64,000 bases of DNA from Dictyostelium discoideum (Eukaryota): assembly GCA_000004695.1 (NCBI GenBank), contig CM000152.2, positions 3,072,001 through 3,136,000 of the forward strand. Direction: 5' to 3'. The notes under the pieces are model-generated. The model worked only from the letters and a program-made list of their open reading frames with translations. It had not been told where the DNA came from and searched no databases. The first letter of the stretch is position 1, and each line of letters opens with the position of its first letter. A program made the translations under genes and the position numbers. Below, one piece after another: positions 30,884-63,878 of this stretch.

Positions 30884-30956
30884 CACCCATTGTGGGTCTC
30901 GATCCCACGACCTGCAGCTTAGAAGGCTGCCGCAATTCCAACTTTGCTAAACGGGC
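30884..30956 (-). tRNA. tRNA-Arg, anticodon UCU, 73 nt, no intron and no encoded CCA.
   Basis: The minus-strand cloverleaf is GCCCGTT-TA-GCAA-AGTTGGAA-TTGC-G-GCAGC-CTTCTAA-GCTGC-AGGTC-GTGGG-ATCGAGA-CCCAC-AATGGGT-G. The A box (TAGCAAAGTTGG) is good and the anticodon loop is canonical (U33, TCT, A37). Two features are atypical. The acceptor stem has two G·U pairs (1-72 and 5-68). The T-loop is ATCGAGA (A54, A60) rather than TTCGAAT. Confidence 0.7.
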
Positions 30957-52644: not shown

Positions 52645-55046
52645 TTAAAGTTCGTCATGGGTTGATTGTGGTGGTTGTTGGAAATCTTGTTGTTGATTTT
52701 CATCATCATCACCAAATGAAACTGATGGACCAGAATTTTCATTTTTAGTGGTTTCGAAATTAGTTTGAGCTAAACTATCACCATTAATCATCATTAATTT
52801 GTAAATGAAATCGGCAAAGTTTGTTGGATTATCAATGGAATAACCAGCGGTAAGAGCAGAAGTTTCATATAAAACATGAGCGCTAACTTTGGTAGTTTCA
52901 TCTTCTTCACCAAATTCATTCAATCTATTCAAGAGTTTTTTAATGAGTGGATGGGAAGGATTAATTTCCATGATTTTCTTTGAATTGAATTGTGGTTGAG
53001 CGTTTGCTTGATGAGCTTGAGCTTTCATGATACGTTCTTGATTGGCAGTGACACCCCAAGAATTTGAGACTAAAATACTTGGTGAATCAGCTAAAACCTT
53101 TGAAATGACGACTTTTTCCAATTTATCAGAGAGAGTCTTTTTGAGGTAAGAAAGGAGTGGTTTGAATTCTTCGGCGGTTTGTTTACGTTGATCCTCTTCC
53201 TCTTTGTCTTCATTGAATTTAACACCACTACGTGCAAGATTAGTGAATTTGTATTTATCGTCAAATTTATCCAATTGTGGTACTAAATACTCATCGATTG
53301 GATCGACTAAGAATAAAACTTCATAACCTTTTTTAATGGCTTGTTCAATGAGTGGTGAAGCTTCTACGGAATCCTTTGATTTACCAGTGATAAAGTAAAT
53401 TTGATCTTGACCCTCTTTCATACGTTCTACATAACCAGCAAAAGTGGTTAACTCTTCCTTACTTGATGGGAATAAGAGGTATTTAGTTAAACGTTTTTTA
53501 TTGGCTTGATCTTCGATGGCACCTAATTTCATTGAAGAACCGAATTTCTTAAAGAATTCATTGTATTTGGTTTTATCTTCATCTTCAGATAACTCTTTAA
53601 TCATTGAAATGAATTTACCAATGACCTTCTTTTTAATGGCATCTAAAATCTTATTTTGTTGTAACATTTCACGAGAAACATTCAATGGTAAATCATCGGA
53701 ATCAATAACACCAACTAAAAATCTTAACCAATTTGGAACCAATTCCTTAAGGTTATCAGTGATGAAAACACGACGTACAAATAATTTAAGACCACTACCG
53801 GCAGCTTCTAAATCAAACATATTTGATGGTGGATTCTCTGGAATGTAAAGAATTGAACGGAATTCAGTATCACCTTCAGTCTTAAAATGTGAATAAGTGA
53901 TTGGTGTATCTTGAGTTTTACTTAATGATCTAAAGAATTCAGTGTATTCTTCTTTGGTAACATCTTTTGCTGCTTTCATCCATAATGGTTTTGAATCATT
54001 TAATTCTTCCCATTTATAAACGGTTTTAGTTTTCTTTTCTTCAGTTTGTCCTTCTTCTTCGGTTGTAGTCTCTTCTTCACCTTCTTCTGTGGTGGTGGTA
54101 GTTTCTTCAACTTGATCATCGGTGATTGGTTTTGAATCTTCTTGTTCTTCTTTTGGAATTTCAACTTCTTCAGAAACGTATAAATAAATTGGGAAATTAA
54201 TGAATTGTGAGTACTTCTTTACGAGTTGTTTAATAACTTCTTGATCTAAGAATTCTTTAGAGTCATCTTTAATGTGAAGACTAATACGAGTACCTCTACC
54301 AAGTGTATTACCTTTTGGATCTTTGGCAATGGTGTATGATGATTGTGAATCTGATGTCCAAACGTATTGATCATCATCATTACTCTTTGAGGTTACAACA
54401 ACAGAATCGGCAACTAAAAATAATGAATAGAAACCAACACCAAATTGACCAATTAAATTGGATGATTCTGCTGAATCACTAACTTTCTTTATGAATTCTT
54501 TAGTTCCTGATTGGGCAATAGTACCTAAATTTCTAACTAATTCATCTTTAGTCATACCAACACCTCTATCAGTAATATGGAGAACATTATTAGCTTTATC
54601 AATTTTAATATGAATATCTAAGTTTGATTGTTCACCTTCACCTAATAAATCTGCATTTGTTAATGCTAAAAATCTAATTTTATCTAATGCCTTTTTTTAG
54701 AAAAAAAAAAAAAATAAATAAATAAAAATAATTAATAATCTTTTTTTTTTTTTTTTTTTTTTTTGTTTAAAAAAAAATTAAAACTTACATCTGATGCATT
54801 TGAAATTAATTCTCTTAAAAAGATTTCTTTTTTAGAATATAAGGAATTAATGATAATATTCATTAATTTATTGACTTCAGTTTGGAAAGTGAATTTTTCA
54901 CCCTTTTCTTCAATTAATTTTGCTTCAGCTTCTGTGTATCCATCACTTTCAAGGTTAACAGTGGCAACACTTGAACTTGGAGCGAATGCAACTAAAAGGA
55001 ATGCAAATAAACCAAGAATTAAAAATATTTTTGTAATACTTTTCAT
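52645..55046 (-). CDS. grp94: GRP94/endoplasmin (ER-resident Hsp90 paralogue), 767 aa, with a C-terminal HDEL. Exons: 55046..54789, 54690..52645.
   Basis: There is a signal peptide ([22 protein letters not shown]). The Hsp90 signature is split by the intron: ...[15 protein letters not shown], then GTAAGT..AG, then [24 protein letters not shown] ATPase motifs ([10 protein letters not shown]), charged linkers and the terminal HDEL are present. Confidence 0.92.
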
Positions 55047-55669: not shown

Positions 55670-56180
55670 TTACCAATTATTGTCTTCATCATTATGTCTA
55701 TTAAAGAACCAAAGGAATGTAATAATTGTTGCATAAACTGTAACACCGCCTGCCATTGAAAATGCAAGTGCTTTTCCTGAAATCTGGAAATTTTTTTTAA
55801 AAAAAAAAATACGATTAGTTATTCATTCTTTTAACATATATATTTAAAATTATATTTAAATAAACCTACAATATCTGAATGGGCTAAAATCATTGGAATT
55901 GCAAATCCAGATGTAATAAATAGACCTGTTAAAAATAACCCAATATCTTCAAATGTTCTGTTTAGTTGTATTTTTTTAAAAAAAAAAAAAGAATGAGTAA
56001 TTAATTAATTGGAATTTTTAAAAAAAAAATAAAAAAATAAAAAAAGAACAAAATAATTAATAAATAATACAAACCCTTTTTCACTTGAAAAACTATCTCT
56101 ATTTCTACATAATATATTTGGGAACGGAGCAAGAAAATATGATGCAACTTTTTTTTTTTTTTTTTTTAAAACAAATTAGT

Positions 56181-56213
<33 letters not shown>

Positions 56214-56628
56214 TTTTTTTTTTTTTTTTTTTTTTGATTCTGATATAAATTTTGAAATATACATACCAACTATAATTGGATAACCAGAGTGAGAAACTAT
56301 ACATGCTAAAATATTAAATAATAAACCAACTGCAAATGCGCAAGAAAAACCTATAATTCTATATTATAATGTAAATATTTTATCTTTTTTTTTTTAATCT
56401 TTTTTTTATTTATTTTTATTTGTTTTTATTGTTTCATTTTCTTTCATATAAATATTGATCTTACGCTATAATTATAGTAATATTAAAATAAAATAATGAG
56501 ATGTTAATAAAGAGATTAAACTTTTTATTCTCGAAAAAAAAAAAAAAATAAAAAAAAAAAAAATAATAATAATAAAATAATCAAAAAATATGTTCAAATA
56601 ATTAAATACCTTTAATATCATGTCCCAT
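55670..56628 (-). CDS. Vps55/LEPROT (endospanin, OB-R gene-related) family four-TM protein, 125 aa, split into 5 exons: 56628..56610, 56350..56267, 56147..56075, 55957..55870, 55783..55670.
   Basis: The spliced product is MGHDIKGFSCAFAVGLLFNILACIVSHSGYPIIVVASYFLAPFPNILCRNRDSFSSEKGTFEDIGLFLTGLFITSGFAIPMILAHSDIISGKALAFSMAGGVTVYATIITFLWFFNRHNDEDNNW. Its C-terminal half aligns with human LEPROTL1 (...[31 protein letters not shown]). Donors are GTATTT, GTATGT, GTTTGT and GTAGGT. All phases close (19+84+73+88+114 = 378 nt). Confidence 0.7.
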
Positions 56629-57178: not shown

Positions 57179-59389
57179 TTATCTACCTCTAAAATCTAAA
57201 TTGAATTGAATAATTTTAGCATTTTTATCCCAAGAAGTAGTTACAATTGAAGAATCATAAGTTGTTAAAGAAGATATACGATTTGAATGATTATAAAGTG
57301 TTCTTTTACATTTTCCATTATCAACATCCCATAATTTAACGGTACCATCAAAGGAAGCAGAAACCACGAAATTATTGATAAATTTGGAAAGATTGACAAC
57401 TTCATCAGTGTGACCTTCTAAACAATGATAGGATTCACCATAGTTTGAATCCCAAACTTTTAGAGTTGAATCGGAGCTTGCAGTTAAGAATTTCTTTGGA
57501 GCAGTTGTACCATCGGTATCAACTTTACCATAGACCAAGATTGAATTTACACTACCACTATGAGATTGAAGAGTTTTAATACATTCACCATTATCCAATG
57601 ACCAAACTTTAACTCTACCATCACACGAGCCACTAATTAAAGTATCGGTAGAGTCAACTTCTAAACATTTAATCCAATCACTATGACCCGATAAAACATT
57701 TGTACTGGTACTGGTACGGATATCCCAAACTCTAATATTTGAATCATTTGAGCCAGAGATTACACGATATTGATCATTAACCACCAAACACATTACAGCT
57801 TGTTGATGACCAAACAATGTGATTGCAGGTTTATGACTACGACTATCCCAAACATTGATATTATTATCATTGGAGCCCGATACGAATATATTTGAATCTT
57901 GATTGACCAAACAAGTGATTGAACCTTTATGACCTCTAAATGATTTAATTTTTTGACCTTTTTGTAAATCCCAATATTTGATGGTTTTATCATATGAACC
58001 ACTTAACAATTTGGAGCCATCGGAACCCATAATCTCACAAGTTGTAACCCAACCACTATGATCCGATAAAGTGTTGATACATTTTGTAGTTGTTACATCC
58101 CAAACTTTTAATGTCGAATCGGCTGAACCCGTAATCAATAGATTATTTTCACGCTGAGAAATGGTTGAACATAAAACACCTTCAGAATGACCAGTGAACA
58201 ACTTCACCACATAATCACCTCTACTTTCAGAGATTTCTTTAATTGAGAAATTATTATTTTTGGTTGAATCTTTCTTTTTACTTGACTTACTCTCCTCCCA
58301 AGTTGATTTAATATTCATAATTTTATTCAATGAAACATGACCCTTTTCATCGAATAGATTTTGAAATATTTCATTGCCAACCTTGTTGTTTTTAGAATCT
58401 TTACCGCCACTACCAATCTTTGTAATCAATTGATAGGAATCCTCTTTTTCTCTCATTATATGTTTACGATGAACCAATTCATTATTATTATTATTATCTT
58501 GAAGTTTGGTTGAATTGATACCATTGTTAACTGTACTATCAAGATCTGATAATTCTCTAGCTCTTGACATATTTGAAACCACTTGTAACATTGTATCAGA
58601 ATCCAAATTAACTGAAGCACACATTCTATTTACAAATCTACGTACTAAATCGGGGGTTGAACCCAATGTAATCATTTTAAAAGTTTGATTTGATAATAAT
58701 GAAAATGCCATATCTTCTTCTTGTTTTATTAATTCCTTTTTAGTATCATCATTCTTTATTGACCATTCTACCATTTCTATTAACATTGAATTACCAATAC
58801 CATAAAGGTTTTTACATTTTGCTTCAATATGATCATAAAATAATTTTTCCCAAAACTTTTGGTTTTGCCAAAGGTCAATATTTGTTTGTAACTTTTCATG
58901 TAAATATTCATTTTGTCCTTTAAAAATTCTATGATAAATAAAAATTGATTCTAAAAATAATTGTGATGATATAAAATCTAATTGTGTATTACATTCTCTT
59001 AATGTAAATCTAATTATATCAACTAAACAATTAAATATTAAATCTGATAATTTAGTTTTACTATGATTTACACTACTACCAATACTACCACTTCTACTAC
59101 CACCACTTTTTGTATTTGAATTACTACTACCACCACCACCACCACTATGTAAACTCATTTGTGAAACATTTGAACCAACATAATTTTGTTTATGATGATT
59201 TAATAATAATTTACCAAAAATATGTCTACCATAATCAAATTGTAATACATCTAAAATTTGTTGAATATCATCAATTGGCACTTGATCACTAAAAATCTTA
59301 TCTAAAAATTTTTCAATTAAAATTACAAATGATTTATGTTGATCTTCATTAAATGAAAATTGTTGTAAACTTGATGAAATAATTGATAA

Positions 59390-59482
<93 letters not shown>

Positions 59483-62378
59483 TGATAATTCAATATTATT
59501 ATTATTATTATTATTATAAATATCATAAAGTGGTTTTAATTGATCTTGATTTAATAATGAAGTTGATGAAGAAGTTAATGAAGTTGAAGTTGAAGAAGTT
59601 GAAGAAGGTGAAGAAGTTATTGAACCAAATAAATCCAATTTTAAAGGTGATGGGAATTTTGAATATTCTTTTAATGTTGAATTATGTTGTGATGGATATG
59701 AAACTGATTGATAACTACTATAATGTGAAGATTTAATTGAGGATGGATTTGAAGATTGAATTATATTTACACTGAATGGATCAATTAAACCCAATGCTAG
59801 AGGTATTTGTGATTGATATTGTTGTTGTAATTCATCGATGGTTAATTTTTGATATCTTTTTGAATGCACAAGATAATCGAATAAATTCTTTGTTGGCCAA
59901 CTATGTTGTTCTAAAAAGTAAATGAATGCTTGAGTTTTAATAAACATTGAAATGAATGGTCTTGACGCAACAGCTTTTGATTTAATATATTCTTCATTAT
60001 TAAAAATTGGTACAGGTTGAGGGAAAACTCTTAAATATTTATAATATTTTCTATAATCATGTAATAAATTACAAAAATATTGTAAAAATGAAAATCTAAT
60101 ATGTTGATCAGGATTTGATGATATTGTTGGTAATGGTGGTATTGGTTGACTATTTGTTGTTGAATTACGTGATGAAGAATTTGAAGTTGTTGTTGAAGTT
60201 GTTGTTGTTGAAGATCTTTTATTACTAATTGAATCATTTGAGTTATTATTATTATTATTATTACTTGTTTTAATTGATGATAATGTATTTGGATTAAAAT
60301 TTGGTAAATCTGATGATAAAATTTCAAATTGTACAACTTTTTTTAATTGATTAATTAGTATTTGAGTTTCTTTTTCAGGTAATTGAATATCTTTTGTAGA
60401 GGTTGGAATATTGATTGAATTATTATCTAAATCGACTATTACCAATTCGTTTAATAGATCTTCTTTTGAAAGGATACGATCAGCATATGATCTATGAATG
60501 CCCATTATGAATGGGAACGGTGTACTACCCGCAATGTCAACTAAAACCTCTGGTAATACAGGTACATAGATATGAGTATACACTAATGGATGAATTAATG
60601 TTGTAATGATTTCGCAAATATAAGTTAAAAGAGTATACTGTGATGAAATGATTAAAATCTTTTCTTCCAATAATAAACACTTTATCAATGAAAGTACATT
60701 TCTAATATCCAAACTAAGGAATAACATTCTATAGGAGATGTCAGGTTCTGGTAATAAACATGGATCTGGTTGCTTCAATAAACATTGATTTAATCCACCC
60801 AAACTAAAGGTAACTGGATTCTTTCCTGGTCTTGGTAATTGAATTTCACTAACTAAATTGAATATATATCTTTCAATTGGAATTGGTGATGGATTATGAA
60901 ATACTCTATGATAAATTTCATTCAATGCAACTCTAAATGAACTAAAAAATGGAAAATGTGATAAAACACAAATACATTTTGGTGCATATAATTTAATTGG
61001 AAAATCATCAATTATTGTTGTTGTTATTGTTGTTGAAGAATTTGTTGAATTATTATTATTTGTTGTATTAGTTGTAGTAGTAGTTGTATTGGTTACATTA
61101 GTAGTATTTGAATTAGAATCTTGTGGCGAAGAAGAAGAAGAAGAAGAAGATGTTGTTGTTGTTACTGCTGCTGTTGGAATTGTAGTTGTTTGAGAATTTC
61201 CAATAGTTGGTGAGGAATTTGAAGAAGATGAAGAAATTGTTGGTGAAATTGCAGTTACATTTGCTTCAGAAATTGTTGAATCTCTTATTAATGACTCAAT
61301 ATCTTTTTCTTTAACATCATTATTTTGTTCATTATTATTATTACTATTATTATTATTATTATTTAAATTACTATTATTTAAATTATTATTATTATTTAAA
61401 ATTAAATTATTAAAATTTTTAGAATCTAAAGTTTCTTTATGTAATTCTTGATAAATTGAATCATTAATTTGTTCATAAAAAGTTAAACAAGAGGCATAAA
61501 AACGTTGACCAGTTTCATTTGTTAAAACAAAAGGAAAGAATGATGGTTGTGGTTGTTCAGTTTTAAAATTAATACCACGTGGAAAACAATACATCCAAAT
61601 ATGTTTTGGTAGAATACCTTCTTTAATTAAATCTTTTTCTTCTTTGTGAGGGTAGTAATCTAAAAGTTCACCTTTATAAGATTTCTCCAATGGTAATGGT
61701 AGAATTGTGGTTGTAGTATTACCCGATGTACCTCTATGACTATTATGAAATTGTTGTTCATTCAATTGATCCAATGGGTCAAGATTTTTAGTTGATGATA
61801 AACCACAAACAAAGAAATAATCAATCGGTCTATCTGGTACATACTTTTTCTCTCTTTCTAATTTCTTTTTCTCTTCTTTCTCTCTTTTACGTGCCTCCCT
61901 TCTTTCAGCTTCAATCTTTTTATGAATTTCCTCTTGTTCCAATTGTCTTAATTTTTCACGTGCCATAGCTTTCTCTTTTTCAATTCTTTCCGATTCTTGT
62001 TCTTTTGCTAATTGTTCCTCTATTATTTTTCTTTCTTGTTCTTTTCTTGCTTTTTCAATTGCTATTGAATCTTTATTATTAGTTATTAAAAATGATGAAC
62101 CTGAATTATTTCCTGTAGAATTTGTTGTATTGGTTGTTTGTACATTTGGTGAACCTGCTATTGATGCTGTAGTTGTTGTTGTTGTTGTTGTTGTTGTCGT
62201 TGTAGTTGTTGCTATATTATTTTGTGTTATAGGTGATGGTGGTGCTGTTGTTACTGTTGATGATTGTGATGAAATTGATTGTGAATGTAGTGGTGGTGTT
62301 GTTGGTTCTGATTGATTACCCGCTATATTATTATGATCACTATTACTTGGTGTAATATTACAACTATTACTATTATTA

Positions 62379-62446
<68 letters not shown>

Positions 62447-63066
62447 GGTACCATTTACATTATTTTGATTTTGAGTTTGATTTTGATTTTTTGATGACGA
62501 TGATGATGATGATGATGATGATGATGTTGTTTTATCTATTCTTGAAGTTATTTTCTTTTTTAATTTTAAAATTTGACTACCACCCTTACCAATAAAAGAC
62601 ATTTCTTTTGGATTTACAGGTTCTGGTTTATAATCTTTTGGTGGTGCTTGTACACCATTTATATTATTGCTGTTTACATTGTTGCTATTATTACTATTAC
62701 TATTACTATTACTATTACTATTACTATTACTATTACTATTACTATTACTATTACTATTACTATTACTATTAGTTCCACCTCCACCTATTATACCACTACT
62801 GCTACTATCATCAATTGATTGAGCACTATTTGTATTTGTATCAGTATCAAAATAAATATCCCTAATTTTAACCATTATTTTTACACGTAATTCTGAAAGG
62901 ATTTGAGGTGAATTTGATGATGGTTTTATATCTCTATCTACAGGTGTCCAACAATCAATTGTAAATATTTCAAATACTGATGTTGATTCCGATGTTATTG
63001 AATTTGAATTCATTGATGCTATACCATCAATACTATTACTATTCACCATTATGCTATTTCTATTAC

Positions 63067-63097
<31 letters not shown>

Positions 63098-63525
63098 TGT
63101 AATATTATTCATATTATTAGAAATTGAAGGTGACGATGATATTTGAGCACTTGTTAATGTTTGTTCATTCGTTGATGTTGATGTTGATGTTGATGATGGT
63201 GGTGGTGGTGACGTAGGTACTGATGGTGATGTTACATCTGATATTACCGTTGTTGGTGTTGGTGTTGAGGCTATTGTTGATGTTGGTGTTGGTGTAGTTG
63301 CTATTGTTGGTGTTGATGTTGGTGTATTTGTTATATTTTGATCATCACTAACACCATTTGGCTTTATATCTGTAATTATTATTGGTGATGGTGTGGTTAT
63401 TATTGAATTTGGTGATACAATTGGTATTTTTATTGAACCAACTCGTATATCATTACCAATTATATTTTGACTATAAATTTGAAATAAAACAAGATCTACT
63501 GTTTCTGTAGTTGTTCTATAAAATT

Positions 63526-63566
<41 letters not shown>

Positions 63567-63878
63567 TAGTTTAAATTTATTATTTTTTATAATAGATTAA
63601 AAATATATATAAAAAAGAAAAATTACACTGTAAATTTATCACTCCAGGAAGGATTTTGAGTTTTTTTATGCACTTTTGTTCTAAACTTTTTCCCATCTAC
63701 AGAGAATTTTATAAATGTATCTTTATCTGTTATATTCTTTGCTTGAAGCCCTATTGGAAATTATAAGTAATATGATCATTTTTTATTAAAAAAAAAAAAA
63801 GAACTTACCCTCAATCATTAATGTTGTTAACCTCGAAAAATTTGGTCTTGGAGATATTGGTGGTGTTGTTGTGGACAT
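57179..63878 (-). CDS. C2-DENN-WD40 multidomain protein, about 2176 aa. Exons: 63878..63809, 63750..63627, 63515..57179.
   Basis: The N-terminal C2 domain is spread over three exons: MSTTTPPISPRPNFSRLTTLMIE, then GTAAGT..AG, then GLQAKNITDKDTFIKFSVDGKKFRTKVHKKTQNPSWSDKFT, then GTAATT..AG, then VTTTETVDLVLFQIYSQNIIGNDIRVGSIKIPIV. A central uDENN/DENN/dDENN region follows (KLYAPKCICVLSHFPFFSSFRVALNEIYH...LPRPGKNPVTFSLGG...FIMGIHRSY). The C-terminus has at least 7 WD40 repeats (LSGHSDWIKCLEV..., LKVWD, VRVWD and so on). Long poly-Asn, poly-Thr and poly-Ser runs are present. The ORF-track Met at 63112 is internal. Confidence 0.8.

Follow-up and report, generated by a model that had tools for sequence, protein, structure and literature searches.

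The 64-kb stretch of Dictyostelium discoideum DNA analysed here (the window; contig CM000152.2, positions 3,072,001 to 3,136,000, GC 22.9%) carries near its end a three-exon, minus-strand gene whose product joins an N-terminal C2 domain to a DENN–WD40 protein of the SCD1/DENND3 class and probably serves as a membrane-recruited guanine nucleotide exchange factor (GEF) for a Rab GTPase. The three-exon model is a real protein-coding gene of a Dictyostelium-type social amoeba. An ORF-only call, as in the program-made open reading frame (ORF) track of the window, drops 199 residues and splits the C2 domain, so that constructs or knockouts designed from the 1977-residue ORF would be wrong.

An earlier note on this DNA had extended that ORF upstream through two phase-consistent introns with GTAAGT and GTAATT donors, and its coordinates, phases and product length proved exact: the spliced coding sequence of 6531 nt encodes 2176 residues, with a single terminal stop and none internal (Table 1). 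The start ATG (63878-63876, minus strand) follows an A-rich tract and has a TAA in the same frame 18 nt upstream of it; the C-terminal FNLDFRGR agrees with the C-termini of orthologues in a seven-sequence alignment. A separate small upstream C2 gene was ruled out, as the frame runs continuously across both junctions with no stop codon. An (ATT)n microsatellite of ~13 units (63527-63566) makes up one third of intron 2.

The domain content of the spliced N-terminus supports the upstream exons. A Pfam scan of the spliced protein, proposed in the earlier note as a check, returned C2, uDENN, DENN, dDENN and eight WD40 repeats; the C2 match (PF00168; 45.8 bits, E 7.7e-12, cutoff 22) covers residues 20-99, spans both junctions and is far beyond chance. 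As controls, the spliced N-terminus minus its low-complexity loop scored 48.5 bits against Pfam C2 and exon 2 alone (41 residues) still scored 30.5 bits (E 4.4e-7), and neither the unspliced upstream extension of exon 3 (237 residues) nor the N-terminus taken from the ORF-track Met gave a C2 match in the Pfam scan. Over the 49 codons of exons 1 and 2 that could be aligned with D. purpureum, the proportions of synonymous and non-synonymous differences (pS and pN) were 0.60 and 0.059 (pN/pS ~0.1), and these exons are therefore under strong purifying selection.

Comparison with other dictyostelids, likewise suggested in the earlier note, found the same N-terminus in six further species. Homologues from D. 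purpureum, Polysphondylium violaceum, a relative of P. violaceum from the Joint Genome Institute (JGI), Tieghemostelium lacteum, Heterostelium album and Acytostelium subglobosum all open with the same C2 domain and start at an equivalent Met, and the alignment is gap-free over both junctions (for example, RLTTLMIEGLQAKNITDKDTFIKFSVDGKKFRTKVHKKTQNPSWSDKFTVTTT against RLTTFVIEGFQAKNITDKDTFIKFSVDGKKFKTKVHKKTQNPSWSDKFNVTTT in D. purpureum). Identity to the orthologues over conserved blocks is 51-78%, D. purpureum standing at 78%. We then compared introns by mapping the annotated orthologous proteins back to their own genomic loci. P. violaceum has both introns at homologous codons and in the same phases (phase 1 at IE/D, phase 2 at KFT/V), together with an exon 2 that is also 124 nt long; T. 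lacteum has intron 1 only, and D. purpureum and H. album have intron 2 only. Because homologous positions recur in other dictyostelids, both introns are old within Dictyostelia. The three-exon model equals a gene model that is already public in another species.

These data bear directly on where translation begins. The earlier note had called the ORF-track Met internal, and this holds: M200 sits in a non-conserved poly-Asn stretch within a loop of the C2 domain. A start at M200 (63112), with the upstream exons as an untranslated leader or chance open frames and a 1977-residue DENN–WD40 protein without C2 as the product, is hardly credible; M200 is the first ATG of a long uninterrupted ORF, but the exon 3 frame is open for 134 codons further upstream, up to a canonical acceptor, the upstream part is present in six of six orthologues, the intron positions are conserved, the low pN/pS extends across exons 1 and 2, and, with C2 strands 5-6 upstream of M200 and strands 7-8 downstream, such a protein would keep a quarter of the domain.

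To describe the C2 domain, we modelled residues 1-295 with AlphaFold2 (AF2), using the seven-sequence alignment as input. The domain is predicted to be a complete eight-stranded antiparallel beta-sandwich, split by a disordered insert that varies in length and sequence across orthologues and that contains the ORF-track ATG (63112-63110). In the region of strands 7-8, D252, W254, E273, R283 and D284 are invariant, and the 50 best Foldseek matches listed from the PDB are all C2 domains (among them perforin, dysferlin C2A, Arabidopsis CAR1/CAR4 and Munc13), at E ~1e-5. The claim that the added exons supply a complete N-terminal C2 is right as to completeness, but exons 1 and 2 give strands 1-4 only; the beginning of exon 3 encodes strands 5-6, and strands 7-8 follow the insert. 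That both introns interrupt C2 beta-strands, as had also been argued, is borne out in the AF2 model, where G24 lies in strand 1 (residues 14-28) and V65 in strand 4 (residues 63-67).

To locate the calcium site, we aligned the domain with HMMER to the C2 domains of synaptotagmin and of Arabidopsis CAR4 and drew on the columns that are invariant among the seven sequences. The canonical aspartates D1-D5 correspond to N29, D34, S80, N82 and N86/D87, and among these five positions only D34 is an invariant Asp (Q81 and N82 are also invariant residues). The domain thus lacks the full set of five acidic residues that coordinate Ca2+ in loops 1 and 3 of the Ca2+-dependent subgroup (synaptotagmin/PKC-alpha/CAR type): with four of these aspartates substituted, it is probably Ca2+-independent. 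A polybasic stretch in strands 3-4 (K44, K45, R47, K49, K52 and K53), encoded by exon 2, is conserved and is similar to the cationic groove through which phosphoinositides are bound in other C2 domains. Such a cationic face could bind acidic lipids.

Downstream of the C2 domain, a short basic motif without a Pfam match and a charged segment, probably helical or coiled coil as judged from its sequence, lead into the DENN module. The uDENN, DENN and dDENN regions follow in canonical order, each above its Pfam cutoff, as in a tripartite DENN module, with uDENN and DENN set apart by a ~160-residue low-complexity insert. The C-terminal WD40 region modelled well in AF2 (predicted local distance difference test (pLDDT) 91.3, predicted template-modelling score (pTM) 0.88), and its 33 strands are read as eight four-stranded blades, in keeping with the propeller of DENND3-type proteins that the earlier note had cited. 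One WD repeat matches a 16-residue DWD consensus by regular expression and is kept in orthologues as VISGSRDTNIRIWDIR; this is a match of motif only, and weak evidence. Low-complexity runs (N31, N25, T14 and S11; AAT/Asn runs reach N31) explain the extra length of the protein relative to its orthologues.

Table 1. Coordinates of the gene and of the regions of its product; residue numbers refer to the 2176-residue spliced protein.
Feature	Position in window	Strand	Residues	Details
ORF in the ORF track	57179-63112	minus		1977 aa; its Met is M200 of the spliced product
Exon 1	63809..63878	minus	1-23 and first base of codon G24	70 nt; carries first part of C2 strand 1
Intron 1	63751..63808	minus		58 nt, GTAAGT..AG; donor directly after 63809, AG acceptor end 63751; phase 1 in codon G24
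Exon 2	63627..63750	minus	24-65	124 nt; C2 strand 1 (end) to strand 4
Intron 2	63516..63626	minus		111 nt, GTAATT..AG; donor directly after 63627, AG acceptor end 63516; phase 2 in codon V65
Exon 3	57179..63515	minus	65 (last base) to 2176	6337 nt including TAA stop 57179-57181
C2 strands 1-6	63416..63839 (both introns within)	minus	14-98	AF2 strands 14-28, 35-41, 44-47, 63-67, 73-81, 87-96; pLDDT >90
Disordered low-complexity insert in C2	62978..63415	minus	99-244	~146 residues; pLDDT <50
C2 strands 7-8	62849..62977	minus	245-287	AF2 strands 246-256 and 273-286, packed against the sandwich
Basic motif NPKEMSFIGKGGSQILKLKKKITSR	62534..62614	minus	366-392	Nearly invariant in 7/7 dictyostelid sequences; between C2 and charged segment
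K/E/R-rich charged segment	61835..62053	minus	553-625	Directly before uDENN; conserved in the seven-sequence alignment
uDENN (longin-like) region	61475..61834	minus	626-745	PF03456 at 681-744, 75.9 bits, cutoff 22.3
Core DENN	60419..60988	minus	908-1097	PF02141 190.5 bits, full-length 1-186/186
dDENN	59873..60004	minus	1236-1279	PF03455 37.2 bits, cutoff 26.8
Conserved middle region	58538..59353	minus	1453-1724	Pfam SBF2 (PF12335) at 1544-1677, 28.3 bits, cutoff 22.1
C-terminal WD40 propeller	57182..58207	minus	1835-2176	Pfam WD40, 8 stretches, 168.5 bits
DWD-box-like motif VISGSNDSNIRVWDIR	57716..57763	minus	1983-1998	Within one WD repeat

To place the protein in its family, we ran an exhaustive profile search with a contiguous DENN-to-middle-region alignment (A2), which returned 6988 proteins at E <=0.001; within the best 148 of these, 25 non-orthologous proteins also have a similar C-terminal WD40 region. 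The DENN, dDENN and middle regions are common to nearly all 25. The middle region is matched by 24 of them (profile ~570-745), plant SCD1 included, the exception being P0228, whose match ends at 652. Twenty relatives could be named, among them proteins from Phalansterium, Protostelium, Balamuthia ('DENN (AEX3) domain containing protein'), Mastigamoeba (four proteins), Mastigella and Pelomyxa, along with the green-lineage genera Closterium and Myrmecia; no DENND3 occurs by name among the 20 looked up. A word-indexed search with a trimmed DENN alignment gave four weak matches only, a search so insensitive that it says nothing on absence. The product has a DENN module and then a C-terminal WD40 region in one polypeptide, the arrangement that defines the SCD1/DENND3 type, and by profile matches the gene appears to belong to the DENN–WD40 class typified by plant SCD1 and animal DENND3, with plant SCD1 (DENND3-type architecture) as its apparent closest named relative.

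One already annotated dictyostelid protein had to be considered as a possible identity for the gene. DDB_G0287961 is an ErkB target annotated 'WD40 repeat, DENN domain' (PMC6397043), and it was ruled out: its phosphopeptide IASRRSSISVVLT occurs neither in the protein nor in any of the six reading frames of the window. The sole [S/T]PR motif of our protein is the ISPR at S9 in exon 1 (residues 8-10, 63850-63858), which matches the ErkB MAP kinase consensus; the exon-1 ISPR peptide was not found in the accessible part of the PMC6397043 supplements.

The C2 head has a much narrower distribution. Pfam scans of the N-termini of ten DENN–WD40 relatives gave a C2 signal in only two, both from Mastigamoeba balamuthi (EP00727 P012715 and P011296): Mastigamoeba P0113 has a C2 fragment at its extreme N-terminus (residues 12-67, 27 bits, profile 47-104) and P0115 has one at residues 237-280 (21.5 bits, profile 3-46). 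These half-domains are probably due to incomplete gene models, either truncated or fused. P0115 also has a HAUS1-like N-terminal stretch, below the Pfam cutoff. Protostelium, Balamuthia and the other non-Mastigamoeba relatives scanned gave uDENN only and no C2 with Pfam. When run against all 148 relatives, a dictyostelid C2 profile found no significant match outside the orthologues and missed the Mastigamoeba fragments too, so that a common origin of the dictyostelid C2 and those fragments is unproven. Among relatives outside the Pfam scan, at most ~210 residues precede the core DENN match in all but P0145, too few to accommodate a C2 domain. P0145 has 387 residues before DENN that by eye look like a Ser/Thr protein kinase (GSGAFSKV..HRDLKPEN) where the C2 would stand, and this kinase-like head suggests that GEFs of this class have acquired various N-terminal heads by fusion.

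Among the relatives examined, C2–DENN–WD40 appears confined to Amoebozoa; Dictyostelia are the only group in which it is certain, and it may be older. The earlier note had called the combination uncommon, which stands when plant SCD1 or animal DENND3 is the reference and fails within Dictyostelia, where it is conserved throughout and already in public annotations. Precomputed Pfam C2 assignments accompany uDENN, DENN and WD40 families on the gene records of D. purpureum, T. lacteum, H. album and P. violaceum, and because of this the architecture is not new; the result is a sound gene model, not a discovery. We raise, as possible rather than probable, the proposal that the C2 head, rather than being peculiar to dictyostelids, is an old amoebozoan addition to an SCD1/DENND3-class GEF that has left traces in Mastigamoeba, and gives it Ca2+-independent, phosphoinositide-driven targeting to a specific membrane (for example, exocytosis sites, cytokinesis or the contractile vacuole). 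If true, the gene would represent a mechanistically distinct branch of DENN–WD40 GEFs that can be studied in a tractable model organism.

Our literature search found no paper on this gene, and the C2-bearing dictyostelid family has no characterised member. Gene model, domain composition, folds, conservation and family placement are established here, and the activities that we propose are those of the families concerned. The DENN module would act as a GEF on a Rab GTPase, the C2 domain would bring the protein to a membrane or hold it there, working without Ca2+ through the polybasic strand 3-4 face, and the WD40 propeller would be a partner-binding or autoregulatory platform, as in DENND3 and SCD1. 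A DENN–WD40 version that bears its own C2 domain offers a simple way to ask how such GEFs reach membranes.

Two other accounts of the protein were considered. The C2 domain may be a protein–protein or autoinhibitory module that folds on DENN or binds the Rab or a partner, rather than a lipid anchor, and this we consider plausible, if less likely: the loss of four of the five canonical Ca2+/lipid-site aspartates would fit it, the structural neighbours include Munc13-1 C2A (2cjt), a domain of protein dimerisation, and intramolecular regulation of DENND3 is reported (Xu and McPherson 2017, as cited in PMC6249801), but most C2 domains bind membranes and the conserved polybasic stretch from K44 to K53 has the look of a phosphoinositide groove. 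Far less probable is a protein that is mainly a WD40 scaffold, such as a DWD-box substrate receptor of a CUL4–DDB1 ubiquitin ligase, with a catalytically silent DENN module. SCD1 is listed as a potential DWD substrate receptor (PMC5812994) and the DWD-box match (residues 1983-1998) is conserved in orthologues, but the consensus is short and common among WD40 proteins, and conservation in the DENN, dDENN and middle regions equals or exceeds that of the propeller; mean column identity across the trimmed DENN-to-middle blocks is 76%, a level that speaks for a function of the DENN module under selection.

Several points weigh against the reading of the gene as encoding a C2-recruited Rab GEF of this class. 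Ca2+ independence is read from an alignment, and some C2 domains bind Ca2+ or lipids via non-canonical residues. The SCD1/DENND3 placement comes from ranking in the profile search, and the likeness to DENND3 is by published description. For the gene model, exact look-ups of the 2176-residue and 1977-residue products in the sequence collection gave no match, nor did a word-indexed search with the N-terminal 128 residues, which missed even the known orthologues and says nothing on absence. Finally, RabGEF activity has never been tested for any Dictyostelium DENN protein (Forbes et al., PMC8923023).

Directly downstream of the DENN gene lies a small four-exon gene for a Vps55/LEPROT-like membrane protein, with at least four coding blocks (~55670-56628, minus strand), which has the same order and orientation in D. 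purpureum, at 66-94% amino acid identity per exon. Overall, the gene is most similar to that of D. purpureum, and syntenic with it. On the other side, the divergent upstream neighbour of the D. purpureum orthologue is an Exo84 exocyst-subunit gene (L001 1-1326); on that side the present window extends only 122 nt beyond the start codon. Reports have plant SCD1 working with the exocyst, and the Exo84 adjacency in D. purpureum is probably coincidental. Elsewhere, the window contains an HSP90-family ORF of 636 residues (52645-54555, minus strand), whose product is encoded exactly on ~2.2-kb contigs assembled from the public sequencing runs SRR26869257 and SRR28564540, and a tRNA-Arg (anticodon TCT; 30884-30956, minus strand), the only tRNA found in the 64 kb.

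Set beside known systems, the product is closest in design to its dictyostelid orthologues. D. purpureum DICPUDRAFT_155132, P. violaceum CYY_004307, the T. lacteum and H. album PN500 proteins and the A. subglobosum 'WD40 repeat-containing protein' have an identical architecture, comprising the C2 domain with its disordered insert, a GKGG motif, the charged segment, uDENN–DENN–dDENN, the SBF2-like region and the WD40 propeller; they are shorter (1745-1914 residues), owing to less low-complexity sequence, and retain differing subsets of the two N-terminal introns. A second dictyostelid DENN–WD40 paralogue (D. purpureum DICPUDRAFT_97633 and P. violaceum CYY_002883), probably the DDB_G0287961 group, is alike in DENN, dDENN, middle region and WD40, but has ~115-142 residues before DENN and no C2. 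The Mastigamoeba balamuthi proteins are also DENN–WD40 proteins with C2 sequence N-terminal to uDENN, but in the form of half C2 domains only.

Plant SCD1 is a DENN/WD40 trafficking regulator linked to Rab, clathrin and the exocyst (PMC5812994). Like our product, it combines a tripartite DENN module, the common middle region and a C-terminal WD40 region in one polypeptide; in Mangifera SCD1 (P0152), profile matches cover DENN 3-242, dDENN 295-366 and middle 576-656, followed by a C-terminal WD40. It differs in being ~1200 residues long, with a stretch of ~117 residues ahead of the core DENN match that is too short for a C2 domain, and in having neither the charged, putatively helical segment nor long low-complexity inserts. 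Animal DENND3 is likewise not known to have an N-terminal C2 domain. It shares with our product a DENN module and C-terminal WD repeats, and in DENND3 these make up a GEF for Rab12 (PMC6249801).

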